64,000 bases of DNA. Origin: Bacilli bacterium (lineage in GTDB: Bacteria > Bacillota_I > Bacilli_A > ML615J-28 > CAG-698). This document shows positions 11,636 through 42,793 of this stretch, piece by piece. Position 1 is the first letter of the stretch. Each line of letters starts with the position of its first letter. The notes under the pieces are model-generated. The model did no database searches, was not told the DNA's origin, and saw nothing but the letters and a program-made list of their open reading frames with translations. A program made the translations under genes and the position numbers. The stretch is taken from NCBI GenBank assembly GCA_050174575.1, contig JBFXJT010000007.1, positions 6,648 through 70,647 of the forward strand, in the 5' to 3' direction.

Positions 11636-11653
11636 ATGTATGGTATTATACAT
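11636..11653 (-). promoter_or_regulatory. inverted repeat ATGTAT-N6-ATACAT overlapping the padR -10 (candidate PadR operator)
   Basis: Perfect 6-bp arms at 11636-11641 and 11648-11653. PadR proteins typically bind ATGT/ACAT inverted repeats. Confidence 0.45.
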
Positions 11654-11673
11654 TACATAGTATTGATTGTCAA
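11645..11673 (-). promoter_or_regulatory. sigma-A type promoter of the padR operon
   Basis: On the minus strand: TTGACA (11668-11673), 17-nt spacer, TATAAT (11645-11650). Confidence 0.7.
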
Positions 11674-14469: not shown

Positions 14470-16015
14470 GTTCTTCCTCCTCTAAAGCATCCATAACAAC
14501 ATTAACATAATTGTGGTGCTTTAAAAAAACGCCTTCTAATCCTTTTCCTCCAGTAAAACTGCGTTTGATGTCCGCAAATACGCCGTTTTCTAAAGCTTTG
14601 AATAGCGACATTTGTTCGATTTCTTGCAATAATTGATGAGCTTCGTTCAAAACATTTTTAGCTCTTTTTGCCATGATTCCATTTTGTTTATATTCAATTT
14701 CATCACCGAATGACTTCATCGAATTAGCAATCAATTTTGCATTTTCAATTGCTAAGTAGCGATCAGACATAAATGGTGTATGAATGGCTTCCGTCATCAT
14801 CCCCAACAGATGAATTGATTGATTAGAGATGATTGTTGCCATATTGAACATTGTGTTTTGCATATAAGCTCGGAAAATATTCCCAGTTATATGTTTTGTT
14901 GGTGGCATATATTTTAAAGGAGCCTCAGGGAAAATTTCTCTAGCCATTTGAGCTTGGGCTAATTCATACAAAAAACTATTTTCAATTGTCGGATCAATTT
15001 CAAAAGCATGGCCTAAACCCATTAAATTTTTTGGGAGGTGAGCTTTTATGGCGAATTGTTCATTAATAAATTGTGAAGCTAAAACGGTATGAGCTTGCGA
15101 ATAGGCATCAGCTGTTGTTAAGTAATTATCTTCACCGGTATTAATGATGATTCCCGCTAAAGCATTAATCCTTCTTGAAAAATTTTGATCAATTAGCGTT
15201 CTTTGCATATTAATATCACGGAAAATTATGCCATAAAGACTATCATTGAGTAAAACGTCGAGCCTTTCCAAAGCAGCCATTGCGGCGATTTCCGGCATAC
15301 ATAAACCCGATGCATAATTGACTAATTTTATATACCTTTTTTCCTGATGAGAAACCTGATCAAGTGCTTCACGCATAATGCGAAAGTTTTCTTGGGTGGC
15401 ATAAGTTCCGCCAAATCCCTCAGTTGTCGCCCCAAAAGGAACAAAATCTAATAAAGACTGCCCTGTTGACCTAATAACGGCAATAATATCAGCACCAGCC
15501 TTGGCAGCAGCTTTAGCTTGGATGACATCTTCATAGATGTTACCCGTTGCTACAATAACATAAATTTCAGTTGCTTTAGGTGGATATAGAGTAAACAAAG
15601 CTGCTCTTTTTTGTTTGTTTTGTTTAATTTTTTCTATTTGTTTTTGAACATATGGCTGTAAACTTAATTTAATATTTTTAGGAGATGCTAACGGAAAATC
15701 CGTTAATTTCATATCACCATTTAGGACGCTAGCCACCAAATCATTTAATGTTTTTTTAGTAGCAATCAAGGCACTCCCTAGATAACTGGAAACACCCAAA
15801 GTCAAATCGCCACTTTCTTTAACTTGGTTGACTAGTACATTAGGGATTGGCACGTCGAAGTCATCGACGCCATCAATTCCTAATAATCGAACAACAGTCC
15901 GCTCAATGGCAACGGTCGTGCGTTCGTTGATAAAGTTCTGAACATCATCAGCAATATGCAAGGCACATTGGCGACATTCATTGATAATATTTTGATCTAA
16001 ATGGAATTTATTCAT
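14459..16015 (-). CDS. kamD: lysine 5,6-aminomutase alpha (large) subunit
   Basis: 518 aa. Size, position immediately upstream of kamE and the operon context with kamA/kdd/kce support the call. Sequence-level recognition by eye is weaker. Confidence 0.8.
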   Translation of the reverse strand: MNKFHLDQNIINECRQCALHIADDVQNFINERTTVAIERTVVRLLGIDGVDDFDVPIPNVLVNQVKESGDLTLGVSSYLGSALIATKKTLNDLVASVLNGDMKLTDFPLASPKNIKLSLQPYVQKQIEKIKQNKQKRAALFTLYPPKATEIYVIVATGNIYEDVIQAKAAAKAGADIIAVIRSTGQSLLDFVPFGATTEGFGGTYATQENFRIMREALDQVSHQEKRYIKLVNYASGLCMPEIAAMAALERLDVLLNDSLYGIIFRDINMQRTLIDQNFSRRINALAGIIINTGEDNYLTTADAYSQAHTVLASQFINEQFAIKAHLPKNLMGLGHAFEIDPTIENSFLYELAQAQMAREIFPEAPLKYMPPTKHITGNIFRAYMQNTMFNMATIISNQSIHLLGMMTEAIHTPFMSDRYLAIENAKLIANSMKSFGDEIEYKQNGIMAKRAKNVLNEAHQLLQEIEQMSLFKALENGVFADIKRSFTGGKGLEGVFLKHHNYVNVVMDALEEEEHVD

Positions 16016-16016
16016 A

Positions 16017-17015
16017 TTAATTACTCTTTTCTAAAACATCGTATATCGGTAAAGTTATTCTATCTTCTATTTTATTACGAAAATTTGCTAAAGAAATGAC
16101 ATTTCCAGTAGGAGAGAATGGATTAAAAGTTAAGGCAACAAGATTTATTGGTTGAAGTACAAAAATTTTTTGTTTTAAAAGCAACAAATGTTTTAACAAA
16201 ATATCATCAGCTAATAAATGTGTAGGACTATTAACGATTAAATCACAATTTAAGTTTTGACGATTGTCAATTAAGGCTTTTAAAAATGATGGACTAACCG
16301 CTTTAGGAACATATACATAACGAATATTTTGCTTAATTTGGGAAATTATGTCTGCTCCACAATCTAGTGTTGTCGTTCTTTTTAAGAATGACATTTTATT
16401 TTGATCATCAATTAAAACAATGTCATCCCATTCTTTTAAGTCAAGTGTCCCATTATATTTTGGCAAATTGAATAATTTGATGGTGTTTAAAGTATGTAGA
16501 ACAATTTTGTCAAGTTGATAGGAAAAACTAGAACCAACACAAAAAATCGTGGCATCACAAATTTGTGCAAGGGTTGTTCGGGAAAAAGCTCCATCAATCA
16601 ATATTTTTTGACATTCATATTCTTTTAATTTATCAATAATCATCCGCATTGATTGAATTGTCGATGGTCCCCCAACAAGACAGTTGCCGGCTTTGGTAAT
16701 TTTGATTAACACAATGGGACCTAATGCGGTCACAATCTTTGTTTCTTCGATAATGTCATATTGGGCTTCACATTCATCCAAACAATTTTTAGCGGTTGCA
16801 ACAATGGTGTTTGTGGAAGTAAAAATCCTTGGTTTCGGCAAGAAAGTGATTTGATCAATTTTTTCGCCATCAAGGCCAATAGAAGAAATACCCGTTGTAA
16901 TCGATTGATATTGTGTTAACAAAAAATTTAAAACTGTTGTTTTCCCTGCATTTTTTGCATTGCCAACTGTACAAATTACTTGATAATCTTCAAGTAATGA
17001 AGTTAATGCTTTAAT
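16017..17015 (-). CDS. P-loop NTPase between kamA and kamDE (putative aminomutase-associated/reactivase-like ATPase); start codon unresolved
   Basis: The track ORF starts at TTG 16922. The same frame stays open up to 17078 and encodes a Walker A motif (YQVICTVGNAKNAGKTTVLNF) upstream of that TTG. There is no ATG, GTG, TTG or CTG in that stretch. ATT at 17015 is the best candidate start. Confidence 0.55.
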   Translation of the reverse strand: MKALTSLLEDYQVICTVGNAKNAGKTTVLNFLLTQYQSITTGISSIGLDGEKIDQITFLPKPRIFTSTNTIVATAKNCLDECEAQYDIIEETKIVTALGPIVLIKITKAGNCLVGGPSTIQSMRMIIDKLKEYECQKILIDGAFSRTTLAQICDATIFCVGSSFSYQLDKIVLHTLNTIKLFNLPKYNGTLDLKEWDDIVLIDDQNKMSFLKRTTTLDCGADIISQIKQNIRYVYVPKAVSPSFLKALIDNRQNLNCDLIVNSPTHLLADDILLKHLLLLKQKIFVLQPINLVALTFNPFSPTGNVISLANFRNKIEDRITLPIYDVLEKSN

Positions 17016-18259
17016 GCTCGTTCTCGTCTTTCTAAATGTTTGGGTTCGATTGCTCTTTGTTTGCCGGCAAGTAATCCACTAACACCTTCAGCTTCTTTAC
17101 TAGTACTGCAATTTGGATTTTCATGATAATCAGTTGGTTCATTGTAAGTGGTAATAACACCTTCATAATTTCTCAAAACAACTTTTCCCGGTGCTTGTGA
17201 AATTACATAGTTAGGCATAACGGGGATTTTACCTCCACCACCAGGAGCATCAACGACAAATGTCGGAACGCATAACCCACTAATGTGACCACGTAAACCT
17301 TCGATAATTTCAATACCTTTACTAATTGGTGTTCGGAAATGCTCAATACCAAGAGAAAGATCACATTGGTATAAATAGTATGGGCGAACACGCATTTGCA
17401 CTAAGCACGTGCATAATTTTCGCATTGTATCGACACAGTCATTAACGCCTCTTAAAAGAACACTTTGATTTCCCAAAGGAATTCCGGCATCAGCCATTTT
17501 CGCAATAGCCTTGGCACTTTCTTCAGTTATTTCATCATAATGGTTAAAATGAGTATTTACCCAAATAGGATGATATTTTTTTAACATTGAAACAAGTTCG
17601 TCCGTAATTCTTTGAGGCATAACAACGGGTGTCCTTGTGCCAATGCGGATAATTTCTACATGGTCAATTGCTCTTAAACGAGAAATGATTGATTCCAATT
17701 TCGCATCACTCATTAATAAAGCATCACCACCGGATAACAAGACATCTCGAACAGCAGGTGTTTTGCGAATATACTCAATTGCTTGTTCAATGCGATCACT
17801 TGGTAAATCATGGTCTGTTTGTCCTGCAAAACGTCTTCTTGTACAATGACGGCAATACATACTACACATATCCGTAATCAAAAACAAAACACGGTCAGGA
17901 TAACGATGTGTTAATCCAGGTACAGGTGAATCCTTATCTTCATCAAGCGGATCAACAAGATCGTTCTTGCCAATGATCATTTCATTAATGCTCGGGATAG
18001 CCTGTTTTCTAATTGGGCAATCAACGTTGTCTGGATCGATTAAACACAAAAAATAAGGTGTAATGGCCATCCGAAAACGTGATAGTACTTCAGTAATCTG
18101 TTGTTCTTCTTCGCTCGTTAAATTGATATATTTTTTAAGTTGCAAGACATCGGTAATCCGGTTTCGAACCTGCCAATGCCAGTCTTGCCAATCTGTTGAA
18201 GAGACATTAGGAAAATACTTTTGTTTTCTTTCTAAATATCTTTCATTTACTATTAACAT
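17003..18259 (-). CDS. kamA: L-lysine 2,3-aminomutase (radical SAM)
   Basis: 418 aa. Radical-SAM cluster motif CSMYCRHCTRR and a KamA-type N-terminal region (WQDWHWQVRNRI). AAGGAG RBS. Confidence 0.95.
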   Translation of the reverse strand: MLIVNERYLERKQKYFPNVSSTDWQDWHWQVRNRITDVLQLKKYINLTSEEEQQITEVLSRFRMAITPYFLCLIDPDNVDCPIRKQAIPSINEMIIGKNDLVDPLDEDKDSPVPGLTHRYPDRVLFLITDMCSMYCRHCTRRRFAGQTDHDLPSDRIEQAIEYIRKTPAVRDVLLSGGDALLMSDAKLESIISRLRAIDHVEIIRIGTRTPVVMPQRITDELVSMLKKYHPIWVNTHFNHYDEITEESAKAIAKMADAGIPLGNQSVLLRGVNDCVDTMRKLCTCLVQMRVRPYYLYQCDLSLGIEHFRTPISKGIEIIEGLRGHISGLCVPTFVVDAPGGGGKIPVMPNYVISQAPGKVVLRNYEGVITTYNEPTDYHENPNCSTSKEAEGVSGLLAGKQRAIEPKHLERRERALKH

Positions 18260-18262
18260 AAT

Positions 18263-19303
18263 TTACTCCTTCGGTTGATATCTTTTTACAAATAGATCAT
18301 AAAGCGGTTTTGATTCCCTTAAAAGGCTCAAGGTTAAATCGGCGTGTCCCGGAGTATAACCGTTACCGATAATCATGGTAGCTTCACTGGCAATGCCTTC
18401 AGCACCTAAAGCAGCTTTTGTGAAAGAAGTTGCCATACTGAAGAAATAAACAATACCGCTTGGTTTGGTTGCTAAAATCGATGTCATTTCTGTATTTGGA
18501 ACATTAACGACATTAATTGTGACATCAACTTGTTGATTATTATTGACTCGCATGATTTCTTGATAGACTGCCATCGGATCTCTAGCATCTGCTACAATGA
18601 TTTCGTCACAGACTCCGAGTGATTGCAAATCTTCAAGTTTATTGGTATTACTTATTAGCGCTATGATTTTGCCATTTGGACCGGCGTTCTTGTGAGCTTG
18701 ATAGCAGCATAATACACCACTTTTACCAGCTGCCCCTAGCACCAAAACAGTATTGTTAGGTTTAACCAATTTTTCAACTTGTGCAGGTGCACCAGCAACA
18801 TCTAAAGCAGATAATACTAAATGTTCACTTAAGTCATTGGGGATTTTCGCATAAATGCCCGTAGCAAATAAGATTGCTTCTGCTTCAACATCAACTTGAT
18901 CTTTATGCAAATGAATTTGTTTGATCGCTTTTATTTTTAATGGTGTTAGTGATAAAGAAACTAAAGTCACAATTTTATCACCAATTTTTAAATCGCATTT
19001 TAAGTCTTTTCCTATTTGTTTAATAACACCTAAAAGCATTCCCCCACTACCTGTTACAGGGTTTTGCATTTTTCCGCGTTTATTGACAATATCCATAATC
19101 ATCGTTTTCATGGCTTCCACATCACTATTAGTTGCTTGTTTAATTTGGGTAAAAGATGCGGAATCGATATTTAATGTTTTTACATCAATTAAAATTTCAT
19201 TGTCTTGGCAAATCATCGTATTATCTAATTGATCTGCAGCTTGAGGGAGAACACCTACCGGACTAATGACACGGTGAGTTCCATAAGGGCATGGCTTTTT
19301 CAT
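18263..19303 (-). CDS. kdd: L-erythro-3,5-diaminohexanoate dehydrogenase
   Basis: 346 aa. Rossmann motif VLVLGAAGKSG. Sits between kce and kamA as in known lysine fermentation clusters. Confidence 0.8.
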   Translation of the reverse strand: MKKPCPYGTHRVISPVGVLPQAADQLDNTMICQDNEILIDVKTLNIDSASFTQIKQATNSDVEAMKTMIMDIVNKRGKMQNPVTGSGGMLLGVIKQIGKDLKCDLKIGDKIVTLVSLSLTPLKIKAIKQIHLHKDQVDVEAEAILFATGIYAKIPNDLSEHLVLSALDVAGAPAQVEKLVKPNNTVLVLGAAGKSGVLCCYQAHKNAGPNGKIIALISNTNKLEDLQSLGVCDEIIVADARDPMAVYQEIMRVNNNQQVDVTINVVNVPNTEMTSILATKPSGIVYFFSMATSFTKAALGAEGIASEATMIIGNGYTPGHADLTLSLLRESKPLYDLFVKRYQPKE

Positions 19304-20127
19304 ATTTTCTTCTCCATTCTTAATATTTTTCTAGTTTCTTCGGGATTGGCAATTTCCCGATTGTATTTTTTTGCAATTTGAACGACTTTCGCTACTAAAG
19401 CGGCATTCGATGGAGCTAATACTCCTTTGTCAATGTAAATATTGTCTTCTAAACCAACGCGAACATGACCACCATGCATAATGGAAAGTTCTGCAAGGGA
19501 AAATTCAAAACGACCGATTCCGGCAACACTATATGTCGCATCATTTGGAATGCTGTCCTTTAAAAACAGAAAATCCCGTTCTTCTCCAGTCATTCCACCG
19601 TTAACTCCTAAAACAAAACTAAAATGGTAGGGTGGATTAATAAAGCCTTTTTTCGCAAGTCTTTGTATCATATCAATATGACCTTTTTCAAAGCATTCAA
19701 GTTCTTTATAAATATGACGACTTTCCAAAACATTGGCAAAATACTTAATATCGTTTTCTGTATTAACAAAAATATCATCACCACCAAAGTTTAATGTTCC
19801 ACAATCAAGCGTCGCCATTTCAGGATTTAGAGTAACCGGACCTAAACGCTCATCACGGCTCATGCCAACGGCTCCTCCAGTTGATACTTGAACGATGACA
19901 TCGGGACATTTAGCTTTGATTGCTGTAATGATTTCTTTAAAACGTTTGGCATCTTGCGTCGGCGTTCCATCATCAAAACGGGCATGCAAGTGAATGATTG
20001 ATGCTTTCGCCAAATAAGCCTGATAAGCACTTTCAGCCATCTCTGAAACAGTATAGGGAACATTGGGATTATGGTCTTTAGTAACTTCCGCACCAGAAAT
20101 AGCACAAGTAATGATTAATTTTTCCAT
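19300..20127 (-). CDS. kce: 3-keto-5-aminohexanoate cleavage enzyme (BKACE/DUF849 family)
   Basis: Start moved to ATG 20127 ([25 protein letters not shown] upstream). The track start at 20160 would be an 11-aa extension inside kal. TIM-barrel BKACE features ...[11 protein letters not shown]... Confidence 0.85.
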
Positions 20128-20507
20128 GTTTTCCTCTGAAGAGCTTTTGGTACAACACAAGTACCCTTTGCAGAAGCAACCAAAATTGGTTCATCTAAAA
20201 AATCAGCTGCTGAAGGAACAATATTTGGTTTAGCTTCGATTACTTTGTAACATGCAAAAGTCATTTTTCTTGAAGTGTTTCCCACTTCAACAATTTCACC
20301 ATGCACTTCCAAAAAGTCACCAGCATAAACCGGAGCCAAAAAATCTACTTGCTCGTAAGCCCGAAATAATCCTTCATCTCCATCATGGCGAATGAGCAAT
20401 TCTGTCGCAACATCGCCAAATAAAGCTAAGATTCGAGCTCCATCCACAAGATTTCCTCCATAATGGGCATCGCTTAAGGACATTCGTAAACGGATTATTG
20501 TTTTCAT
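20115..20507 (-). CDS. kal: 3-aminobutyryl-CoA ammonia-lyase (hot-dog fold)
   Basis: 130 aa small hot-dog protein between the CoA-transferase genes and kce, matching the size and position of Kal. Confidence 0.7.
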
Positions 20508-21151
20508 ATTGAAACTCCTTTCATTGGCAATACTTGATCAATAATTAAAGTTGCTTCAGTTACAGCGACAACTTCATCAATCGAATAATTAGGATGAACT
20601 TCTAATAGATGTAACCCATCGTCACGAACCTCCATAACGGCCATTTCTGTAACGATTAAGTTAGCTTGTTTATAAGCAGTAAGTGGTAAAACACAACGTT
20701 TTAATATTTTTGATTTTCCATTATTTGTATGTTGCATCGCAATAATAACCTTTTTAGCACCAACAACCAAATCCATGGCACCACCCATTCCCGGAACTTT
20801 CTTTCCTGGAATAATCCATGAAGCAAGGCTACCTTCTTCATCAACTTCAAGAGCACCTAGGACAGTGACATCAACATGACCACCACGAATAAACATAAAG
20901 GAAGTTGCAGAATCAATAAACGATCCTCCCGGCATAATCGTTGCTTTCATTCCTCCGGCATTAACGATATCACTTTGTTCTTCTGTTAATGGGCCAATAC
21001 CAATTATTCCATTTTCTGATTGTAAAATGACATGTTTGGTCGGAGGAATAAAATTTGCCACTAAAGTAGGAGTACCAATACCCAAATTGACAATATCGCC
21101 ATCTTTAAGTTCTAAAGCTATTCGACTAGCAATAATAAACTTTTCGTCCAT
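20504..21151 (-). CDS. atoA: 3-oxoacid/acetoacetate CoA-transferase subunit B
   Basis: 215 aa. Catalytic-Glu motif [12 protein letters not shown]. Confidence 0.9.
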
Positions 21152-21798
21152 TATTCCACCTCCATAACGATGTAATCAACTAACGGAAAAGGTGTAATGA
21201 CTGCTTCAGGATCTATTTCTTCAAGTTTTTGCTGGCATACAGCAATCACTAATGATGCAGCTGTAGCCATGATTGGATTAAAATTACGCATTGTTTTGCG
21301 ATATGCAAGATTTCCATATCGATCGCAAATCGCTCCACCAATTAAAGCTAAGTCAGCAAATAACGGTTCTTCTAGCAAATAATCAATCCCTTGAACCTGG
21401 ATTACTCTTTTCCCTTCTTGAACAATTGTTTTTAGTCCAGTTGGGGTCAAAACACCACCTAGTCCCGCACCTGCAGCACGGATTTGTTCGACCAATGTCC
21501 CTTGAGGAACTAAAACAACTTCTAGTTTACCTTCTTGCATCAACTTCCCGACAGTTGGATTTGTTCCAATATGGGATGCAATCAATTTTTTAACCCGATT
21601 AGCAACAATCAATTTTCCAACTCCTCGGTCTTCAAATCCTCCGTCATTACAAATGATTGTAAAATCGGTAAAACTTGTTTCTAAAATTAAATCAATTAAG
21701 TAATCAGGACTTCCGTTTGCTAAAAAACCACCAACCATAATCGTCATGCCGGATTTAAGGTGACTTTTAAAATTTTCCTTACAAATAAAACCTCGCAT
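21151..21798 (-). CDS. atoD: 3-oxoacid/acetoacetate CoA-transferase subunit A
   Basis: 215 aa. [16 protein letters not shown] and ...IGTNP... typical of the A subunit. TAATG junction with atoA. Confidence 0.9.
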
Positions 21799-21807
21799 AT
21801 TTCCTCC

Positions 21808-22224
21808 TTACTTAGGGGGCATAATAGTCGCTTCACCGACTATCACCACTTCGTTTTTGTCGTTTTTTGCAACGCAATCAAAAACAACACGATTTTTTTC
21901 CATAATGATTTCTTTTACAGTCACAAAAGCCGTTATTGTATCATTCAAATAAACTGGCTTAATAAACTTTAAACTTTGGAAAGTATAGATACTTCCTAAA
22001 CCAGGTAATTCAGTACCTAAGATGGCACTAAAAAGAGAGCCAACAAGCATACCATGAACTATCCTCGTTTTAAAAATCGTTGTTTTTGCATAATCTTCAT
22101 TTACATGAGCGGGGTTAAAGTCACCAGAAACTGAGGCAAAATTGTTAACATCAGTTTCTGTAAAACTCTTTGTTATTGAACTTGTTTGTCCAATAAACAA
22201 TTCGTTAATTGTCAATTTTTTCAA
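21808..22224 (-). CDS. MaoC-like (R)-specific enoyl-CoA hydratase/dehydratase
   Basis: Hydratase-2 motif FASVSGDFNPAHV. Start reassigned to in-frame TTG 22224 (MKKLTINELFIGQ), 7 nt after AAAGGAG. The track's 39-aa N-terminal extension runs through the riboswitch terminator. Confidence 0.8.
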   Translation of the reverse strand: MKKLTINELFIGQTSSITKSFTETDVNNFASVSGDFNPAHVNEDYAKTTIFKTRIVHGMLVGSLFSAILGTELPGLGSIYTFQSLKFIKPVYLNDTITAFVTVKEIIMEKNRVVFDCVAKNDKNEVVIVGEATIMPPK

Positions 22225-22241
22225 GAAATAACTCCTTTCAT

Positions 22242-22273
22242 AAAAAAAGCTGTTGTCTTTTAAAGACAACAGC
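22242..22273 (-). terminator. riboswitch-controlled intrinsic terminator
   Basis: Minus strand reads GCTGTTGTCT-TTAAA-AGACAACAGC, a perfect 10-bp stem, followed by TTTTTTT. Confidence 0.85.
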
Positions 22274-22435
22274 GCTCCATTTCCCAAATGGCAGTGGATA
22301 AGGCATTCCTTGTCCACCAAGACTTTAATGAATGAACTCATTAAATCTTTCGGCGATATTTCCCTTTATTTGTCACATTGGGAGTTCATTCCCTTAGCAT
22401 TGACAAATTACCCTAAATAACGCACCTCTGTGTAT
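22266..22435 (-). promoter_or_regulatory. lysine riboswitch (L-box) aptamer
   Basis: Minus-strand RNA: ATACACAG AGGTGCG...AGGGTA ATTTGTCA...TGACAAAT AAAGGGAAATATCGCCGAAAG ATTTAATGA...TCATTAAAGTCT TGGTGGACAAGGAATGCCTTATCCAC TGCCATTTGGGAAATGG AGCG CTGTTGT. Conserved L-box blocks and five-helix layout recognised by eye. Confidence 0.85.
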
Positions 22436-22446
22436 TAACTAATACT

Positions 22447-22475
22447 ATTATACCGAAACAAAAATGGCTTGTCAA
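22447..22475 (-). promoter_or_regulatory. consensus sigma-A promoter of the lysine operon
   Basis: On the minus strand: TTGACA (22470-22475), 17 nt, TATAAT (22447-22452). Confidence 0.75.
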
Positions 22476-22492: not shown

Positions 22493-22515
22493 AAAAAAAC
22501 ACTCCAATTGGAGTG
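22493..22515 (-). terminator. intrinsic terminator after the PAS-GGDEF-hemerythrin gene
   Basis: Minus strand reads CACTCC-AATT-GGAGTG followed by TTTTTTTG, directly after the stop codon. Confidence 0.7.
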
Positions 22516-22516
22516 C

Positions 22517-24157
22517 TTAATCGTTTTGTTTGGTAAGATAGAAATATTTAGTATCCGCTTCAGCCATATGACCAACAATAAAATTATCTACTAAAAACGA
22601 TGCTAAAACGATACTTTTTATTTCACCATTTTGATATTTCTTTTTCATATCATTTGCTTTTAAAATAATGTCGCGATGCAGAGCACAATGTTCATCATAA
22701 TTAGGATAATCTAAATTATACATTACTTTTTCTTCAAAATAAAAATGTTGAGAAATGTGTTTGATGATTTTTTCAATTTGATTGATAATTTTTTCATAGG
22801 GAACATTTGTTTGAAACATAAAAATTAAGTTGTTTCCCAATTCAATAATCTCTCGATGTTGATTATCTATATCAACATTGCCACTACTCCATTCATTATG
22901 CCATTCAAAATACGGTGAAGTTGATAAAGATTCCATGGAGAGGCTCTCTGAAGAGCTTGCCACACGGTTACGTCCCTGTTCTTTTGCACAGTACATTGCA
23001 TCATCCGTACGTTTATACCAACTTCTTAATGACTCGTTAGGAATCATTTGGGCAACACCAAAACTTGCCGTTAATTTGGAAATAATGGGAAACCTGAAAC
23101 CTGCAACAGCAATTCGAATTTTATCAGCAACTTTTACAGCATCTTCCACTTTTGTATCTGGCAATACGATAACAAATTCTTCGCCTCCAAGACGAGACAA
23201 ATAGTCTGTTTTTCTAATTGATGATTTTAACAGTTGGGAAAAACTTACTAAAATATCATCACCAACAGGATGGCCCCAAGTATCATTTACAAATTTAAAA
23301 TGATCAATATCAGCAATAATCATTGATAAAGGCAAAGCTGTATTGTTGGCTTTTTCCATTGTTTCATTAGTAATTTTATGAAAGAAGTGACGATTGTAAA
23401 GTCCGGTAAGGTTATCAATTGTCATTTCAAATTCAAGACGGTTAGCTAATTCTACTGTTTTAGTGATATCGCGTGCAGACGCATAAATAAATCTTCCAAA
23501 TTGTTTTGCCCGCCACTCTAAAAAATGATATTGTCCATTTTTATCTTTATAACGATTAACAAAATTATTAATTTCTTCACCCTTAAGTAAATTTTTCATC
23601 ACTTCTCTTGTAGAAGAAATATCTTCCTCATGCATAAATTCAAAAAAAGTACGGGTTGTTAAATCAGCAAAGTTGGCTCCAACTAGGTTTTCAAAATAAT
23701 CATTTGTTTTAATAAAATGACCATCCATATCTGAGACCACTAAAAGGTCAAGGTTAACATCGATTAATCCTTTTAATAATTCCTCTTCTTTCATGGTTTT
23801 AGTGATATCTTCATAAAAGCAACCAAAGTGATGACAATCAATGGGAAAGATGGTTGCTTTAACCCATGAATGATTAATAGGTAAAAAGCAATTGCATGTT
23901 TTAACCTCTTTTTGATTTACTGCTTTCCTAAAGTTTTGATACCATTCATTGTTAAAATGATTATTAACATTTGCTGTTGATAAATAACTTTTTCCTATTA
24001 ATGCTTCTTTTGGAAGTGGAATAAACCGTTCAAACGCTTCGTTTACTCCGGAAAAATAGTAGTCAACAGGTTCTTGTTTTTCGTTAAAGATAATTTCATG
24101 AAAAGAACAAGGAATAGGAGATTCTTTAAAAAAGTCTAAAAAATTACAGTTATTCAT
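22517..24157 (-). CDS. PAS-PAS-GGDEF diguanylate cyclase with C-terminal hemerythrin-like domain
   Basis: 546 aa. GGDEF domain: LTGLYNRHFF, DIDHFKFVNDTWGHPVGD, RLGGEEFVIV. C-terminal approx 130 aa carry bacteriohemerythrin ligand motifs: IDNQHREII, HFYFEEKVM, DEHCALHRDI, VGHMAEADTKY. Confidence 0.85.
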   Translation of the reverse strand: MNNCNFLDFFKESPIPCSFHEIIFNEKQEPVDYYFSGVNEAFERFIPLPKEALIGKSYLSTANVNNHFNNEWYQNFRKAVNQKEVKTCNCFLPINHSWVKATIFPIDCHHFGCFYEDITKTMKEEELLKGLIDVNLDLLVVSDMDGHFIKTNDYFENLVGANFADLTTRTFFEFMHEEDISSTREVMKNLLKGEEINNFVNRYKDKNGQYHFLEWRAKQFGRFIYASARDITKTVELANRLEFEMTIDNLTGLYNRHFFHKITNETMEKANNTALPLSMIIADIDHFKFVNDTWGHPVGDDILVSFSQLLKSSIRKTDYLSRLGGEEFVIVLPDTKVEDAVKVADKIRIAVAGFRFPIISKLTASFGVAQMIPNESLRSWYKRTDDAMYCAKEQGRNRVASSSESLSMESLSTSPYFEWHNEWSSGNVDIDNQHREIIELGNNLIFMFQTNVPYEKIINQIEKIIKHISQHFYFEEKVMYNLDYPNYDEHCALHRDIILKANDMKKKYQNGEIKSIVLASFLVDNFIVGHMAEADTKYFYLTKQND

Positions 24158-24168
24158 ACTTTGCCCCT

Positions 24169-25011
24169 CTATTTACTTAGTATTTGTTTGACATAATTAG
24201 GCAATACCAAGGAAGCTTGGTGAATAGAAAAATTATAATACTTTAAATTTAATGAGTCAATAAAGGATTGACTTCCCTTAATAATCTGAGGATTTTCTGT
24301 ATTAGAAGCAAATCCAAACAACCAATGGCCGCTTGGATAAGTGGGGATGAATGCTTGGTATACTGTTGCTGTGTGAAAAATCTCTCTAAGTTTTTCATGT
24401 GCTCGTAACATTTCTTGGCGCGTTTTTTCAAAGTAGGGACTTTCGTGCTGATTAACAAGAATTCCATTCGGCTTTAAAATGTTAGCACAATTTTTGTAAA
24501 ATTCACGGCTGAACAATCCTTCGCCTGGTCCTATGGGATCAGTCGAATCGATTACAATTAAATCATAAGTCTCGTGTGTTTGCTTAACAAATGCACTTCC
24601 ATCTGTAAATATTAATTTTACTCGAGGATCCGTTAATTTTGCTGCTGTTTGTGGCAGCAGCTCTTGGCATTTACGAACAACTATTTCATCAATTTCCACC
24701 ATAGTAATGGACTTGATAGTTGGGTATTTGCATAATTCTCGGACTGAACCACCATCACCACCACCAATCACCAATACATTGGAAATGGATGGGTTAACTG
24801 ACAAAGGAAAATGAATCATCATTTCATGATAAATAAATTCGTCTTTTTCGTTGGCCATCATGATGTCATCAAGAGTAAAAAAACGCCCCAATTCATAAGA
24901 ATCATAAAAATCTATTTTTTGGAAGGGGGTCTTTTGAGAAAATAAATGCTCTTTTATTTTTATCGAAAACTGAATATTATCCGTCCAGTATTCACTAAAC
25001 CATTTATCCAT
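24169..25011 (-). CDS. speE: spermidine synthase (polyamine aminopropyltransferase)
   Basis: 280 aa. VLVIGGGDGGSVRE and ...DSTDPIGPGEGLF. Confidence 0.9.
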   Translation of the reverse strand: MDKWFSEYWTDNIQFSIKIKEHLFSQKTPFQKIDFYDSYELGRFFTLDDIMMANEKDEFIYHEMMIHFPLSVNPSISNVLVIGGGDGGSVRELCKYPTIKSITMVEIDEIVVRKCQELLPQTAAKLTDPRVKLIFTDGSAFVKQTHETYDLIVIDSTDPIGPGEGLFSREFYKNCANILKPNGILVNQHESPYFEKTRQEMLRAHEKLREIFHTATVYQAFIPTYPSGHWLFGFASNTENPQIIKGSQSFIDSLNLKYYNFSIHQASLVLPNYVKQILSK

Positions 25012-25814
25012 TATTTCTCCAACTTCATTCGCGGAATATTCATTCCATAAAATATTTCTGCCATTTCAGCGTTAATTTCTTGTCTGATTTTCGCAACTTC
25101 TTCTTCTGTCAAATCCGTACTTTTGATATTGAATAAATAATTATCTAATATAAGGGTATTTAGCATCATTTTTGTGTGAAAAATATTGGTATAAGCCAAA
25201 TTCACATCGTAAGTTGTATACTTTGATAAAACCTCATCGGGGATAAAGTCTTGAATAGAATCAATGTCATGATCAAGGAAATGCTTTTCACCGTTTAAAT
25301 CTCTAGTAAACCCACGAATGCGATAATCAATTGTAATTATATCCGAGTCAAATTGATTAATTAAGTAATTTAATGTTTTTAATGGAGAAATTTCTCCACA
25401 TGTGGAAACATCAATATCAACTCGAAAAGTACTGATGGGACTGCCGGGATAACTTTCAGGATATGTATGAACAGTCAAATGACTTTTATCTAAATGGCCA
25501 ACAACGGATTCTTTTGCGGGAATTTCGACTTGTTCGTTTTTCCCATGATACTCGGAAATTAAAACAGTAACGCTTGCCCCTTGGGGTTCATAATCTTGGG
25601 TCGCTACGTTTAAAATCTTCGCATCAATCATTTTAGTAACTTCGGTTAAAATCTTTTTTAAGCGGGTACTATTGTACTGCTCATTGATATATTCAATATA
25701 AGCTTTTCTTTCAAGGTCATCTCTAGTATAGCAAATATCATATATATTAAAACTCAATGTTTTTGTAAGATTGTTAAAACCATAAAGTTTTATTGGATGA
25801 CGTTTTCTTACCAT
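25011..25814 (-). CDS. speD: S-adenosylmethionine decarboxylase proenzyme, long E. coli-type form
   Basis: 267 aa. LYGFNNLTKTLSFNIYDICY, DYEPQGASVTVLISE and the processing site HLDKSHLTVHTYPE closely parallel enterobacterial SpeD. Confidence 0.9.
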   Translation of the reverse strand: MVRKRHPIKLYGFNNLTKTLSFNIYDICYTRDDLERKAYIEYINEQYNSTRLKKILTEVTKMIDAKILNVATQDYEPQGASVTVLISEYHGKNEQVEIPAKESVVGHLDKSHLTVHTYPESYPGSPISTFRVDIDVSTCGEISPLKTLNYLINQFDSDIITIDYRIRGFTRDLNGEKHFLDHDIDSIQDFIPDEVLSKYTTYDVNLAYTNIFHTKMMLNTLILDNYLFNIKSTDLTEEEVAKIRQEINAEMAEIFYGMNIPRMKLEK

Positions 25815-25864
25815 TTTTGGGCCTCCTAAAAAAGAAAAGTAATTTTCTACAATTTACTTATCAT

Positions 25865-25893
25865 ATTATAATATAGTTGTCTCCTTTTTTCAA
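25865..25893 (-). promoter_or_regulatory. promoter of the speD-speE-DGC operon
   Basis: On the minus strand: TTGAAA (25888-25893), 17 nt, TATAAT (25865-25870). Confidence 0.55.
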
Positions 25894-26072: not shown

Positions 26073-28757
26073 ATGAGGCAATCAATAAAACTTATTTTTA
26101 TCCTTAATTTGTTTTTTATCCTTGCTTTGGGAGCAATCTATCCAAACCCTTCTTCGAAAAATTACGAAATCAATTCATCTAATAATCTCCACCTTTTAAT
26201 GGAAATTGATGAAAATGAGGCAAATGAAATTGCAAAAACATATAATCTAGATTTTCTTGATTATTCAAATTATGGTTATGCTACTTTCGTTGCCCAAGAT
26301 GATGAACAATATAAATCATTACTAAATGATACCGATCTATCCTTTATTCCTAATAACCTGTCTATTACTGATGCTAGACCACCAATAAATCAGGAAGACT
26401 TAACAAAATTATATGCTTTATCCTTAATTGATACCTATGATGCTTGGCAATTGACAATGGGAAGCAGTAGTGTTTTAGTGGCTATCATCGATACTGGAAT
26501 AGATATTTATCATAGTGAATTTACAGGGAAGATTTCTTCACTATCTTACAATTCGAAAACAAAGACAGTCGGTTTAACACAAGTCATTGATGATCAAGGT
26601 CATGGAACAATGGTAGCTGGTGTAATCGCCGCAACAAAAGGCAATAACATTGGGATTGCTGGTGTTGCACCTTCCTCTTCATTATTGGTTATCAAAGCAA
26701 ATGAGCCAAACGAAGGATCTTTTCTTGATAGTTCCGTCATTGAAGGTATTTATTATGCTGCTGACCATGGTGCTGATGTCATTAACATGAGTTTAGGAAG
26801 TCCTTATGCCAACCCATTAACAAAGACAGCATTAGAATATGCACGAAGTAAAGGCGCACTCATTGTTGCTGCTGCTGGTAATGATAGTGTTAGTACCCCT
26901 TACTATCCTGCAAGTTTTGACACAACAATTTCTGTATCTGCTGTTGATCAAACACAATTATTAGCCACGTATTCAAATTTCGGTTCAAATATTAGTGTTG
27001 CCGCTCCTGGAACAAACATTTATACAACAGTTAAAGGAAATACCTACGGCTATGGGTCCGGTACTTCTTTGGCTGCCCCACAAGTATCGGGTGTTTTAGC
27101 TTTAATGCTTGCATATTTAAATATGTCCGATGAGGAAATTTTGTCAAGAATTTTACTAACAGCAACTGATTTGGGAAATTTAGGCAAAGATGATTCATAT
27201 GGTTATGGACTTGTTAATAGTTATGATGCCTTAGTTCATCCTTTAGTTACCGTTTCGTTTGAAACTTTCGGTGGAACAGTTCTAGAGCCAATTCAAGTAG
27301 CGGCTAATCGTCCATTTATATGCACTCAAATTCCTGAAAAAGAATTATCCATTTTCGAAGGATGGTACAAGGATAGTTTATTGATGACACCTTGGGTTAT
27401 GGGAACAAGTGTAACCAGCACAAATATTACTTTGTATGCGAAATATACTAAAAGTTCATATTTAGTGTCTTTTGTAACATCTGGTTCTTATGTAGAAGAT
27501 ATGATTGTCGCAGCAAATGGTTCTTTTACCCTTCCAACTACATCCCTTGATCAATATCAATTTATTGGATGGTTTTTAGACAGTCAATATTTAGAACCAT
27601 ATGTTTCTGGACCAGTTACCGCAGATTTGACGCTGTATGCAAAATTTGAAAAACTTGATACTTATTATAATATTTTCTTTGTAACACAGGGATCGGCGAT
27701 TGATCCGATTCAAGTAAAAGAAGGCGAATCTGTTTCACCACCACCTTCCTTGTTAACTGGTTATACTTTTCATGGATGGTATTTAGACAGTAATTATTCC
27801 ATTCCCTATCAAAATGAACCTGTTACTTCATCGATGACACTGTATGCTTTGTTTGATATCAATGATTATGATATTTCCTATTTTATTGATAACGAACTTT
27901 ATGATACCATCACTTTGCCGTATAATAGTGAAATTCCTAATCTTGAACCTGCCAAAGAAGGATATACTTTTAGTGGTTGGTATTTAGATGATAGTTTCAC
28001 AACCCCACTTGATGATGGTGGTTTAGAAAACAATCTGTCCTTATTTGGTTTTTTCACAATCCAAACATTTGAAGTAATTTACTTAGTAGATGATACAATC
28101 ATCAGTCAACAAACCGTCAATTATGGGGAAAATGCTACTCCGCCTTCATCTTATACAAAACCAGATTCAATAAGCTTTTTCTATGAATTTATCGGTTGGA
28201 GTGAAGAAGCATTAAACGTTACCTCTAATTTAACAATAATAGCAATATTTAATAAAACATTCAAACCAACAAGCATTGCTTTACAACCGGGAATTGATAC
28301 AATCTATCAAAATGAAGAATGGATTGATGCCGGGTTAATCATTTCTAATTCAAATATTACTTATACAACTCAAAGTCAAGTCGATACTCATTTTATTGGT
28401 CGTTACCTTGTTTTATACTTTATATATGAAGAAGCAAATTTGGTGTACGAAAAAACAAGAGTGGTATCTGTTATAGAAAAACCACCTGTTGTCCAAATAA
28501 CTCTTAATGATGATGTAACAACAATTTTTGAAGGAAATGAATACCTAGATGCCGGAGCAAATACAAATGTTGGAACAATTACAACAAAAGGAACCGTAGA
28601 TTACAATCAGGAAGGCACTTATGTAATTGTTTATGAAGTTGTTGTCCAAAATATTACCTATCAAAAACATAAATATGTCTATGTTGTGAAAGAAGTTGAA
28701 CCAACTTCAACCGTAGCTTTTATTGTAAACGATAAAAAAAGGTGGTATGAAGTATGA
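26073..28757 (+). CDS. secreted subtilisin-like (S8) serine protease with C-terminal repeat and Ig-like domains
   Basis: 894 aa with a signal peptide. Catalytic triad motifs VAIIDTGID, HGTMVAGVIAA and GTSLAAPQVSG. Five approx 70-aa repeats with (F/Y)xGW(Y/F)xD, of the Listeria-Bacteroides/InlB-B type. Two DUF5011-like Ig modules (GIDTIYQNEEWIDAG, TIFEGNEYLDAG). Confidence 0.85.
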   Translation: MRQSIKLIFILNLFFILALGAIYPNPSSKNYEINSSNNLHLLMEIDENEANEIAKTYNLDFLDYSNYGYATFVAQDDEQYKSLLNDTDLSFIPNNLSITDARPPINQEDLTKLYALSLIDTYDAWQLTMGSSSVLVAIIDTGIDIYHSEFTGKISSLSYNSKTKTVGLTQVIDDQGHGTMVAGVIAATKGNNIGIAGVAPSSSLLVIKANEPNEGSFLDSSVIEGIYYAADHGADVINMSLGSPYANPLTKTALEYARSKGALIVAAAGNDSVSTPYYPASFDTTISVSAVDQTQLLATYSNFGSNISVAAPGTNIYTTVKGNTYGYGSGTSLAAPQVSGVLALMLAYLNMSDEEILSRILLTATDLGNLGKDDSYGYGLVNSYDALVHPLVTVSFETFGGTVLEPIQVAANRPFICTQIPEKELSIFEGWYKDSLLMTPWVMGTSVTSTNITLYAKYTKSSYLVSFVTSGSYVEDMIVAANGSFTLPTTSLDQYQFIGWFLDSQYLEPYVSGPVTADLTLYAKFEKLDTYYNIFFVTQGSAIDPIQVKEGESVSPPPSLLTGYTFHGWYLDSNYSIPYQNEPVTSSMTLYALFDINDYDISYFIDNELYDTITLPYNSEIPNLEPAKEGYTFSGWYLDDSFTTPLDDGGLENNLSLFGFFTIQTFEVIYLVDDTIISQQTVNYGENATPPSSYTKPDSISFFYEFIGWSEEALNVTSNLTIIAIFNKTFKPTSIALQPGIDTIYQNEEWIDAGLIISNSNITYTTQSQVDTHFIGRYLVLYFIYEEANLVYEKTRVVSVIEKPPVVQITLNDDVTTIFEGNEYLDAGANTNVGTITTKGTVDYNQEGTYVIVYEVVVQNITYQKHKYVYVVKEVEPTSTVAFIVNDKKRWYEV

Positions 28758-29284
28758 AAAAAATAATATTATTCCTCCTTTTTGTTAGTTTACTTGCTAT
28801 CGTTGGTTGTACAATTGGTGAAAACACAACTGTTAAAATGTCTTTAAAGTCTGGTATCGATACAGTTGAAATTAATAGCGAATATGTTGATCCAGGTGTC
28901 AAAGCAACTTTTGGTTTATTGAGCCTTGATGTCAAGGTCGTTTCTTCAACCGTCAACACCCAAATGCTCGGGGCTTATGAAATTGTTTATGAAGCTAGTT
29001 ATAACGGTATTTTTAAAACAATTACACGAATAGTGACTGTAATTGATGATACTGCCCCTATTATTTACTTAAATCCTGGTGTTGACACTATTTTAATCGG
29101 TGAAAATTGGGTTGACGCTGGTGTTACGATAACCGACAATAGCAATGTTGTGATTGACCCCATCATAACTGGAGAAATTAACAATCAAGTTGTTGGTGAT
29201 TATGAAATTGTTTATCAAGCAAAAGACTCAAGCAACAATATTAATCAAATTATCCGTATAGTTCATGTTATTGATAACGAATAA
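28754..29284 (+). CDS. lipoprotein with two DUF5011-like Ig domains
   Basis: 176 aa. Lipobox LLAIVGC. Modules SGIDTVEINSEYVDPGV and PGVDTILIGENWVDAGV. The ATG overlaps the protease stop (ATGA). Confidence 0.6.
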   Translation: MKKIILFLLFVSLLAIVGCTIGENTTVKMSLKSGIDTVEINSEYVDPGVKATFGLLSLDVKVVSSTVNTQMLGAYEIVYEASYNGIFKTITRIVTVIDDTAPIIYLNPGVDTILIGENWVDAGVTITDNSNVVIDPIITGEINNQVVGDYEIVYQAKDSSNNINQIIRIVHVIDNE

Positions 29285-31353: not shown

Positions 31354-34098
31354 TTATCCCATTTGATTAGTAATTGTTTGCCATGGAATATTGTGTGTTC
31401 GTTCGACAGTCCATTGATCGCTCGTATCTTTACTGTAAAGAGTTACGGTATCAAAGCCATTAGCAATATCTGGAGTAACTGCATAGTATGTTACAACTTC
31501 ATCAAAGAAGGCAACAGCCCAACCAGCTACTTCAATATCACAAAGTTCCAAATACAATTCCTGGCCTAAGTAAGCACTTAAATCAATAAAATATGTCCCC
31601 ATATCTGCCCATGATCCACCTAAATCTACACTTGGGAAATTGGTATCGCTAAAACGATTTTGTTTATATAAACCAATTTGTGTCCCGTCAGCTAAATAAA
31701 CTTTTACAGCTGCAGCATTAGCACCCATTTTTAAAGAAATAAAGCCTGTTCCGTGAAGAGTAAAATTGGTTGAGCGTAATGAATATTGCTCGCTTTCCGC
31801 AACACCTGAAGTCCATCCGTCAAAGTGATAATCACCGCTTTGGTTATATGGTAATTTTTCATTCCAATAATGTGTTTGACTTATAACAGCATTAACTGTA
31901 ACTTTTTCAGAAGTCCAACCAGTCATATCACCAGTTTCAAAACCTCCATTGATAATTAAACCATTATTGCCCATTTCCCATTCGATATTAACATCTGGTT
32001 CTTGGACACTGTCTTTTGTAGAACCAGCAACAGTATCAAAGCCATTTGCAACATCAGGAACAGTTGTATGATAGAAATTAATATCATCAAAGAAAGAAAC
32101 TGCCCAACCAGCTGTAGCTGGATCATCAATCAATTCAACATAAACTTTTTCGCCTAAATAAGCCGATAAGTCCGCAAAGTAACGTGTCATGGTCGCTAAA
32201 CGTCCACCATTAGCAAGGTATGGGAAATCAAAATCTTTGAAACGATAATTTGTGAAATAACCGATGACTGTTCCATCTTCTTTTACAACACGAACAGCGG
32301 CAGCTTTTCCACCCATCATGAAGGAAACCCAACCAGTACCAGATAATGTAAATAATCCAGAGCGTAAAGTATAACCAGCTGATTCCACGCTTGTTGCTGT
32401 CCAACCATCAAAATGGTAATTTCCTTGTTGGTTATAAGCAATCATTTCGCCCCAGAAAGTTTCTGCGCTTAAGGCACCATTAATTATATCGCCAAAAACA
32501 ACACTCCAACCAGTCATATCACCTGTTTCAAATCCACCGTTTGCGACATTGGTATCGGCAGAAACGACAACATTGAATGTGCTCGTAACTGTTTCGCTTT
32601 CATAAGTTGTCCCATAATGAACAACATATGTTCCTTCTTGATCAAAATCAAAAGCATCAAATCCTGTTGTAAACTCTGTTTCGCCTAAAACAACTTTTGT
32701 AATGACAGCTGGTACAGCCGTTTCGCCATAAGTTATCACGACATCAGCCATTAATGCTGTCAAGTTGTAATCATTTACCATCGCCGTTACAAAACCTTCT
32801 GCTTCAGTTTCAATCATTAAGGCAGGTAATTCAAATGGATAATCATAATTTGTATAGTATTCTTGTAAATGAGCTAGCGAATTATATGAATCGGTGTATG
32901 TTTCTGCCATAATTGCTTGGAAAGTAGATTTCATTAAAGCTTTTACTTCAACTTCCGTCATACTAACACGGAAATCATCAGCATTGATGAAAGCAAATCC
33001 GCTACTTGGATTGTTGTCCACAATCGAGATGTACAACACATCGCCAAGGTATTCGGATGCATCAACATAAACGCGACGTAATGTCAATGGTAATCCTGGA
33101 TCGTTAAATGTTGTATTAGTGACTTGGATTAATTCTGCATCTGTTGTTCCGTCATTAATAGAAATATAACAATTTGTTGGCCCAGAACCAATCATAAAGG
33201 AAATCCAACCATCACCGGCTAATGTGAATTTTGTAGAACGGATTGCTCCAACTGCTGATTCGGCAGTAGCTGCATTGTTATTTCCGTCTAAATAATAATC
33301 ACCTTCACCATAAACCATACGATCAGTCCAATAAAATTGTGATGTTGGAACGACAACTGTTCCACCAAATGCTGTACCGCTTAATTGTTTCCAACCAGTT
33401 AAATCACCTGTTTCAAACCCACCATTTGTAATCGTTGTTGATGTTGGGTCTTCTTCAAATTCTGGTTCTCCATAAGCTTCAATTTGGGCATCACGTTCTG
33501 CTTGCATAGCTGTAACTTCTGCTTCAGTCAAACAAACTACAAAATCATCTAAATTGACATAGCCATAATCATCGGTGTTATCACTGTCAGTTACTCTGAT
33601 ATAAATGATTTTATTCAAATGTGCTGATAAATCAACAACTCTTCTGATCATTTGATCAGTAATAAATGGTTCATCATAATCAGTATTCGTTATTTTTAAC
33701 AAAGCCGTGGCATTGTCTTTTTCAAAGAACTCAACAAAAATCTTATCTTGATTTTTTGCAGCTCCCATTTTAAAAGCAATTTTACCAGTTCCAGTTAATT
33801 TAAAGAAAGAAGATGTTAGTGTACCAACCATTTGTTGAGTACCACCATCCGTTCCACTGAACCAAAATTCTCCTGTTTTATCTACAGTAATTCCATTTAC
33901 TTTTAGATCATTAACGATACCGCGAGGACTAAAAGCCGTTTCTGTTTTTGTCCATCCCGTCCAAACTTCTGCTGTTCCAACTTCAAATCCACCGTTTGTA
34001 ATTTGGGTTGGATACTCTTCTTCTTTACCACATGCTGCTAACAATAATAAAGAGAGTGCTAGCATAAATACAAAGGTAAAACGCCATGTTTTTTTCAT
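31354..34098 (-). CDS. non-catalytic surface lipoprotein with four beta-sandwich carbohydrate-binding-like modules
   Basis: 914 aa. Lipobox LLLAAC-GK. Modules start with NGGFE(V/T)G at aa 33-190, 223-380, 518-690 and 715-886. Modules 1-2 resemble the N-terminal module of the adjacent GH32 (...IRVTDSDNTDDYGYVNLDDF vs IKIIDNDNNTDNYNYINVDDF). Modules 3-4 form a second subtype. An Ig-like spacer lies at aa 425-513. Confidence 0.6.
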   Translation of the reverse strand: MKKTWRFTFVFMLALSLLLLAACGKEEEYPTQITNGGFEVGTAEVWTGWTKTETAFSPRGIVNDLKVNGITVDKTGEFWFSGTDGGTQQMVGTLTSSFFKLTGTGKIAFKMGAAKNQDKIFVEFFEKDNATALLKITNTDYDEPFITDQMIRRVVDLSAHLNKIIYIRVTDSDNTDDYGYVNLDDFVVCLTEAEVTAMQAERDAQIEAYGEPEFEEDPTSTTITNGGFETGDLTGWKQLSGTAFGGTVVVPTSQFYWTDRMVYGEGDYYLDGNNNAATAESAVGAIRSTKFTLAGDGWISFMIGSGPTNCYISINDGTTDAELIQVTNTTFNDPGLPLTLRRVYVDASEYLGDVLYISIVDNNPSSGFAFINADDFRVSMTEVEVKALMKSTFQAIMAETYTDSYNSLAHLQEYYTNYDYPFELPALMIETEAEGFVTAMVNDYNLTALMADVVITYGETAVPAVITKVVLGETEFTTGFDAFDFDQEGTYVVHYGTTYESETVTSTFNVVVSADTNVANGGFETGDMTGWSVVFGDIINGALSAETFWGEMIAYNQQGNYHFDGWTATSVESAGYTLRSGLFTLSGTGWVSFMMGGKAAAVRVVKEDGTVIGYFTNYRFKDFDFPYLANGGRLATMTRYFADLSAYLGEKVYVELIDDPATAGWAVSFFDDINFYHTTVPDVANGFDTVAGSTKDSVQEPDVNIEWEMGNNGLIINGGFETGDMTGWTSEKVTVNAVISQTHYWNEKLPYNQSGDYHFDGWTSGVAESEQYSLRSTNFTLHGTGFISLKMGANAAAVKVYLADGTQIGLYKQNRFSDTNFPSVDLGGSWADMGTYFIDLSAYLGQELYLELCDIEVAGWAVAFFDEVVTYYAVTPDIANGFDTVTLYSKDTSDQWTVERTHNIPWQTITNQMG

Positions 34099-34115
34099 TT
34101 TTTTCTCCTTTTCCT

Positions 34116-38544: not shown

Positions 38545-38555
38545 CTTTTTCCCTC

Positions 38556-40904: not shown

Positions 40905-40916
40905 ATTACCACTTCC

Positions 40917-41843: not shown

Positions 41844-41850
41844 TATCACC

Positions 41851-42783: not shown

Positions 42784-42793
42784 TTTTCACCTC

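Follow-up and report, generated by a model that had tools for sequence, protein, structure and literature searches.

Our findings indicate that a 64-kb stretch of DNA from the metagenome-assembled genome (MAG) of an uncultured, low-GC member of the Bacilli, referred to here as the window, probably contains a lineage-specific operon of three genes on the minus strand, in which the spermidine synthesis genes speD and speE are followed by a gene for a hemerythrin-containing diguanylate cyclase (dgc), with a promoter at 25893-25865, a terminator at 22518-22497 and no demonstrated functional coupling between its metabolic and signalling parts. We found no speD/speE-diguanylate cyclase operon described in the literature, and what we present is a probable tricistronic unit made from well-known families, real but fairly ordinary. 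The first gene, speD (25011-25814, minus strand), is an open reading frame (ORF) for 267 residues with an AGGAGG ribosome-binding site ahead of it, and speE (24169-25011, minus strand; 280 residues) starts in overlap with its stop codon. The DNA reads TAATG at this junction (gagaaaTAATGgat), such that the stop of speD and the start of speE have one base in common, 25011, which is a 1-nucleotide (nt) overlap. The cyclase gene (22517-24157, minus strand; 546 residues) follows just as tightly: the speE stop codon TAG at 24171-24169 is succeeded by 11 nt (aggggcaaagt) and then by the cyclase ATG at 24157, and a GAGGGG ribosome-binding site (24164-24169, minus strand) overlaps the speE stop codon. 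The AGGGG/GGGG core of this site and a speE-cyclase gap of 8-11 nt are kept in L001 and L003, the corresponding loci of two related Bacilli MAGs (assemblies GCA_050177775.1 and GCA_964646985.1).

The flanks of the three genes carry the signals expected of a single transcription unit. Some 45 nt ahead of the start codon of speD lies a sigma-70-type promoter-like site, TTGAAA-17-TATAAT (25865-25893, minus strand), that matches 11 of 12 positions and whose -10 element is conserved in L001. The window has more sites of at least this strength than shuffled sequences do (nine, against 3.4 +/- 1.5), and of its seven minus-strand sites five are intergenic and immediately precede operons, the speD site among them; weaker promoter-like matches occur at the chance rate in this AT-rich DNA (23 observed, 21.9 expected). 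The speD leader matched no Rfam family even at a permissive threshold, and the idea of a regulatory RNA there was rejected on that ground. At the opposite end the unit is closed by an intrinsic terminator (22497-22518, minus strand) whose 9-bp stem carries a 4-nt loop and precedes seven T, with a folding energy of -16.5 kcal/mol (z = -6.5). Hairpins of differing stem sequence, each with a T-run, occupy this position in L001, L003 and the more distant locus L169, those of L001 and L003 being confirmed by folding and that of L169 being seen in the sequence alignment. Because the position is kept while the stem sequence changes, this is the pattern that a real terminator would be expected to show. 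With all three genes on one strand, minimal gaps between them, no conserved internal terminator or promoter, and a flanking promoter and terminator, the genes appear to be packed as one transcription unit; the 1-nt overlap, the 11-nt gap, the promoter-like site ahead and the strong terminator behind make co-transcription their most likely state. A preliminary description of this DNA had reported the TAATG junction, the start of the cyclase gene 11 nt after the speE stop with its own GAGGGG site, the promoter at 25865-25893 and the terminator after the cyclase, all of which agree with what we read.

The two metabolic genes are assigned by family matches that exceed curated cut-offs. The window SpeD is an S-adenosylmethionine decarboxylase proenzyme of the Escherichia coli type (TIGR03331 at 388.8 bits, cut-off 255.8, together with a PF02675 match), and the Bacillus subtilis-type SpeD model scores below its own cut-off on it. 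SpeE is matched as a spermidine synthase, or polyamine aminopropyltransferase, by NF002010 (359.9 bits, cut-off 260) and TIGR00417 (288.1, cut-off 249.55), with Pfam matches to PF01564 (199 bits) and PF17284. As in the E. coli speED operon, a TIGR03331-type SpeD and a canonical SpeE stand side by side and are presumably co-translated. The E. coli order is speE then speD, whereas here speD comes first and a third, signalling gene has been added; the host also differs, being a Bacilli MAG, a group for which the short B. subtilis-type SpeD would usually be expected. The presence of the long E. coli-type protein (TIGR03331) in such a genome, rather than the short type, is an observation in its own right, as is the arrangement in 80 related metagenomic loci, in most of which speD is not adjacent to speE.

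The third gene encodes a protein with profile matches to PAS (residues 138-234), GGDEF (residues 246-398, 147 bits) and hemerythrin (residues 418-540), the last region scoring 77.8 bits against TIGR02481 (cut-off 51.75); domain profile searches gave no EAL domain in the cyclase. An AlphaFold model computed from 30 homologues, with a mean predicted local distance difference test (pLDDT) score of 86, reproduces the PAS, GGDEF and hemerythrin folds and adds a PAS-like fold at the N-terminus (residues 1-117) that Pfam does not call. It also predicts a disordered linker of about 15 residues (approximately 402-417) between GGDEF and hemerythrin, and a hemerythrin four-helix bundle at residues 428-544 (helices 428-449, 454-481, 487-509 and 515-544, pLDDT mostly 80-92). 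The GGDEF domain of the model can be superposed on solved cyclase structures to within 1.1-1.6 A. Its GGEEF motif (residues 324-328) is invariant in the 30 homologues and aligned with the GGEEF of PleD. Five residues separate this motif from an upstream I-site RxxD, R315-K-T-D318, which aligns with PleD R359-D362 and whose R315 and D318 are nearly invariant, being conserved in at least 90% of the homologues. D283, N291, D300, K392 and R396, invariant throughout the same set, align with D327, N335, D344, K442 and R446, the metal- and guanosine triphosphate (GTP)-binding residues of PleD. All seven di-iron ligands (H434, H471, E475, H490, H494, H530 and D535) are present and invariant in the homologues, and these five His, one Glu and one Asp, spaced as H..HxxxE..HxxxH..HxxxxD, match Methylococcus bacteriohemerythrin 4xpx residue for residue. 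The intact GGEEF site and the complete set of His, Glu and Asp ligands had been recognized in the preliminary description, and both observations stand; the inactive cyclase for which it had allowed is not what the sequence suggests, the catalytic and metal residues all being present. As far as sequence can tell, the cyclase is intact, looks catalytically competent and possesses a complete di-iron site.

Based on these assignments, we propose that a tricistronic messenger RNA starts near 25855 and ends at 22497. From it SpeD would make decarboxylated S-adenosylmethionine, as its family membership suggests, and SpeE would move the aminopropyl group onto putrescine to give spermidine, with translation of speE probably coupled to that of speD by way of the shared TAATG. 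Translation of the cyclase would start from a ribosome-binding site of its own, and the enzyme, presumably a soluble PAS-PAS-GGDEF-hemerythrin protein, should make cyclic di-GMP (c-di-GMP) from GTP with product inhibition at the RxxD site. The redox state of its di-iron hemerythrin probably tunes this activity, the reduced (anoxic) form likely being the more active one, by analogy with Bhr-DGC of Vibrio cholerae. Such redox tuning is plausible in view of a neighboring operon that uses oxygen-sensitive radical S-adenosylmethionine (radical-SAM) and B12 enzymes.

According to PMC9388753 and PMC8846402, which review the work of Schaller et al. 2012, Bhr-DGC (VC1216) is the only biochemically characterized hemerythrin-regulated cyclase. 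In the diferrous state its activity is roughly ten times that of the diferric state (PMC9388753, PMC8846402), and its hemerythrin domain is N-terminal, directly before GGDEF (PMC9388753). The modelled window cyclase resembles it in uniting a seven-ligand bacteriohemerythrin with an active-type GGDEF domain in a single, presumably soluble polypeptide, and by analogy the redox state of the di-iron site would be expected to control c-di-GMP synthesis in both. Unlike Bhr-DGC, the window cyclase does not have the N-terminal hemerythrin and C-terminal GGDEF of that type: its hemerythrin is C-terminal (residues 418-544), behind the linker of approximately 15 residues that is predicted to be disordered, and two PAS folds occupy its N-terminus. 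Because the domain order is opposite, the signal-transfer mechanism of Bhr-DGC is not simply transferable, and our literature search found no characterized GGDEF enzyme with a C-terminal hemerythrin (PMC9388753).

The order of GGDEF then hemerythrin, which had earlier been put forward as a distinguishing feature of this protein, is in fact common. More than 100 database clusters, mainly from Bacillota, are collinear with it over most of its length and have GGDEF and hemerythrin Pfam matches; several sources already name such proteins "diguanylate cyclase/hemerythrin-like/PAS", and a tally from 2008 (PMC2556348) already included chimeras of GGDEF and hemerythrin, PAS-containing ones among them. 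The PAS-PAS-GGDEF-hemerythrin cyclases of Bacillus benzoevorans, Calidifontibacillus erzurumensis and Azotosporobacter soli are collinear over 93-100% of their length at 34-41% identity and have the same conserved catalytic, I-site and iron-ligand residues. Bacillota cyclases of this architecture differ from the window protein in that most have approximately 7-21 extra residues between the second PAS domain and GGDEF, and the sampled members lie in unrelated contexts, none adjoining speDE. The window cyclase is accordingly another member of a common, biochemically unexplored architecture. Proteins of this kind with a C-terminal sensor are numerous in Bacillota and none has been studied, such that any member, the window protein among them, could reveal how c-di-GMP synthesis responds to a di-iron domain located behind the catalytic one.

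How far the linkage of speE and the cyclase gene extends is central to what it may mean. The two nearest cyclase homologues, at 67% and 64% identity, come from the "Bacilli bacterium" MAGs that hold L001 and L003, and both genomes share the order of the window, namely S8 peptidase, speD, speE, cyclase and lysine-fermentation operon, the speE-cyclase gap being 8 nt in one and 9 nt in the other. Synteny among the three genomes extends over at least 15 kb, and because this whole neighborhood is syntenic, and hence inherited, the adjacency within the clade carries no independent weight. Identity among the three is 90-92% for SpeD, approximately 80% for SpeE and 64-67% for the cyclase, the N-terminal PAS-like fold being the fastest-diverging part of the latter at 44-52%. 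Beyond this clade, the nearest homologue (P0004, 46% identity) lies on the contig of L169, JGI contig Ga0378408_0260837, 1-2008, of about 2 kb and 46% guanine-plus-cytosine (GC), where it is preceded by the end of a hydrophobic membrane-protein gene and not by speE. Ten further outside loci, with 32-44% identity to the window hemerythrin domain, lie in unrelated surroundings, and their flanks contain neither speD or speE nor lysine genes. A profile search of genome contigs with the cyclase alignment returned mostly generic GGDEF genes, with four true relatives among the matches listed, and speD or speE was nearby in none of the 80 GGDEF loci among the matches listed. Likewise, none of 80 metagenomic SpeD loci (56-71% identity) has speE followed by a hemerythrin-GGDEF gene; two have unrelated GGDEF genes a few kb away, and the locus of the closest SpeD relative (L089, 68% identity) consists of speD-speE, a 370-nt gap and then unrelated genes. 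The phylogenetic check that the preliminary description had proposed for the linkage thus returns a narrow distribution, three syntenic genomes with it and 11 outside cyclase loci without it, and the adjacency was not seen to recur in phylogenetically independent lineages. The GC fraction of the operon region, 0.32, matches its surroundings and leaves a recent horizontal transfer of the operon unsupported. We infer that placement of the cyclase gene behind speE is a recent, lineage-specific arrangement, the simplest reading being that a rearrangement in this lineage put speDE before an existing cyclase gene, or the reverse. For annotation this carries a warning, as adjacency that is mere inherited synteny should not be read as function.

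Several observations weigh against the ordinary, lineage-specific operon that we favor. The -10 element upstream of speD is not clearly conserved in L003, which also has an extra ORF of 125 residues with no Pfam match (3351-3728 of that locus, same strand) 56 nt upstream of speD, where the window has only non-coding DNA; because of this extra ORF, the 5' boundary of the operon may differ between species. The redox control that we attach to the cyclase is extrapolated from Bhr-DGC, a protein of opposite domain order, and the tight speE-cyclase junction has been kept while the cyclase diverged to approximately 65% identity, which could reflect selection for co-expression. Finally, the 3' end of speE holds a promoter-like site, TTGACT-17-TATAAT (24232-24260, minus strand), that also matches 11 of 12 positions and from which, in this species, the cyclase could be transcribed separately.

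This last site, together with a hairpin in speE and the N-terminal PAS-like fold, goes beyond the features recorded in the preliminary description, and it is the basis for a different view of the locus in which the cyclase is transcribed mainly alone and the apparent operon is a matter of close packing. The site has the correct strand and lies approximately 75 nt ahead of the cyclase ATG, as such a view would need. Its -10 element, though, becomes TACAAT in L001 and TACAAC in L003, with loss of the invariant final T, and about four equally good sites fall within coding DNA of the window, which is the number expected by chance; the site is therefore probably fortuitous. Moreover, even if it were active, no terminator would block read-through from speE. 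The hairpin (24312-24338, minus strand) folds at -16 kcal/mol in the window and has a T-poor tail. In L001 it weakens to -9.4 kcal/mol (z = -0.9) and L003 lacks it, and we rejected it as a terminator. The earlier statement that no terminator separates speE from the cyclase gene therefore survives, and of the internal promoter or terminator named at that time as evidence against co-transcription, candidates do exist inside speE but neither looks conserved. On balance we regard independent transcription of the cyclase as unlikely.

If the genes are co-transcribed, the question becomes whether the three-gene operon is a functional module, in which co-expression couples spermidine to c-di-GMP output and hemerythrin adds an O2 or iron input; a PAS domain might, for example, sense spermidine, decarboxylated S-adenosylmethionine or methylthioadenosine, or the products might act jointly in biofilm formation or in protection against oxidative stress. 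The junction of 8-11 nt has been kept in three species in spite of cyclases that are 64-67% identical, and the protein has two PAS domains without an assigned ligand, the N-terminal one diverging fastest (33-52% identity). Connections between polyamines and c-di-GMP do exist elsewhere. In Vibrio cholerae, the NspS-MbaA circuit joins them through a periplasmic polyamine-binding protein and a membrane GGDEF-EAL protein. In Dickeya oryzae, the PilZ receptor YcgR contacts the arginine decarboxylase SpeA, giving polyamine/c-di-GMP cross-talk (PMC12239582). The window locus resembles these systems in the concept of tying polyamines to c-di-GMP, and differs in that they use ligand binding or protein contact, whereas here the sole link would be shared transcription; those circuits depend on binding proteins or receptor-enzyme contacts rather than on a common operon, which leaves the parallel a purely conceptual one. 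The paired binding protein and membrane GGDEF-EAL protein of the NspS/MbaA type were not found, no solute-binding protein gene adjoins the operon (the window has a single such gene, in a fructan-utilization cluster about 18 kb away), and genes for a polyamine transporter, an NspS-like protein, a c-di-GMP effector or proteins of the EAL, HD-GYP or PilZ families are absent from the 64 kb, as is any c-di-GMP riboswitch. Against a functional module stand also the inherited rather than independently retained adjacency, the lack of speE ahead of the nearest outside homologue, and the lack of recurrence across 11 outside cyclase loci, 80 GGDEF loci among the matches listed and 80 speD loci. We consider such a module doubtful, and functional coupling of polyamine synthesis to c-di-GMP a low-probability speculation. 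Of the direct transcriptional link between spermidine synthesis and c-di-GMP production that had been proposed for this locus, the packing of the genes suggests that the co-transcription is right, but a meaningful link finds no comparative support. In the operon as we understand it, the cyclase lies behind speE and would therefore share the promoter of a housekeeping operon, and if it is truly co-expressed with spermidine synthesis it represents a further small instance in which a metabolic operon carries a signalling gene along.

The locus on the other side of the cyclase gene offers a further candidate partner. Directly after the cyclase terminator lies a perfect TTGACA-17-TATAAT promoter (22447-22475, minus strand), followed by a lysine riboswitch (22262-22438, minus strand; 81 bits) and its terminator (22249-22273, minus strand). 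Because the 3' strand of the riboswitch P1 helix (CUGUUG) sits inside the 5' arm of this terminator, lysine binding should prevent termination, an ON design that would fit the lysine-fermentation operon behind it; riboswitches of this class are already known to act positively on lysine catabolic genes (PMC5584792). The operon itself (13732-22225, minus strand) looks complete by family matches, with genes for a MaoC-type dehydratase, two CoA-transferase subunits, 3-aminobutyryl-CoA ammonia lyase, 3-keto-5-aminohexanoate cleavage enzyme, 3,5-diaminohexanoate dehydrogenase, lysine 2,3-aminomutase and two lysine 5,6-aminomutase subunits, as well as a 301-residue protein without a Pfam match (16017-16922) that is conserved in L001 and L003. 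The mechanical start of the MaoC-like ORF (21808-22341, minus strand), at 22341, falls inside the riboswitch; its true start is likely the TTG at 22225, seven bases past AAAGGAG, which gives a protein of 139 residues as in the gene calls of the relatives.

It could be argued from this arrangement that the real partner of the cyclase is the lysine-fermentation locus, for whose oxygen-sensitive radical-SAM and B12 pathway it would serve as an O2/redox sensor, and that speDE arrived later. In L169, the 46% identical cyclase is followed by the same terminator, a TTGACA-17-TATAAT promoter and the 5' part of a lysine riboswitch, with no speE upstream, and the adjacency of cyclase and lysine locus consequently spans organisms of 33% and 46% GC. 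Because L169 keeps this link without speE, it appears to be older than the link between speE and the cyclase. The argument depends on one outside contig of 2 kb, in which the truncated riboswitch piece gives no Rfam match and is recognized by direct alignment alone. The ten other outside cyclase loci have no lysine genes nearby, and between the cyclase and the lysine operon lie a strong terminator, a consensus promoter belonging to the latter, and the riboswitch. We judge a partnership of this kind to be very unlikely. The most far-reaching possibility, a regulatory module in which a PAS domain senses a metabolite of the polyamine pathway (spermidine, decarboxylated S-adenosylmethionine or methylthioadenosine), the C-terminal hemerythrin reports O2 or iron by a route undescribed for GGDEF enzymes, and c-di-GMP integrates polyamine status and redox in an anaerobic fermenter, is in our estimation highly improbable.

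The wider neighborhood of the operon includes several further loci. Divergent from speD, on the plus strand at 26073-29284, are genes for an S8 subtilase of 894 residues with four Listeria-Bacteroides repeats and for an Ig-like surface protein of 176 residues, both syntenic in the two related genomes. The region 31354-44134 (minus strand) is a fructan-utilization cluster with three large GH32 enzymes, two of which have a Laminin_G_3 domain, together with a 914-residue protein without a Pfam match (31354-34098), an ABC sugar transporter, a LacI regulator and a PfkB kinase. Another perfect match to the TTGACA-17-TATAAT promoter, the second in the window, occurs at 11645-11673 (minus strand), in an intergenic position upstream of a HAAS/DUF4097 gene pair.

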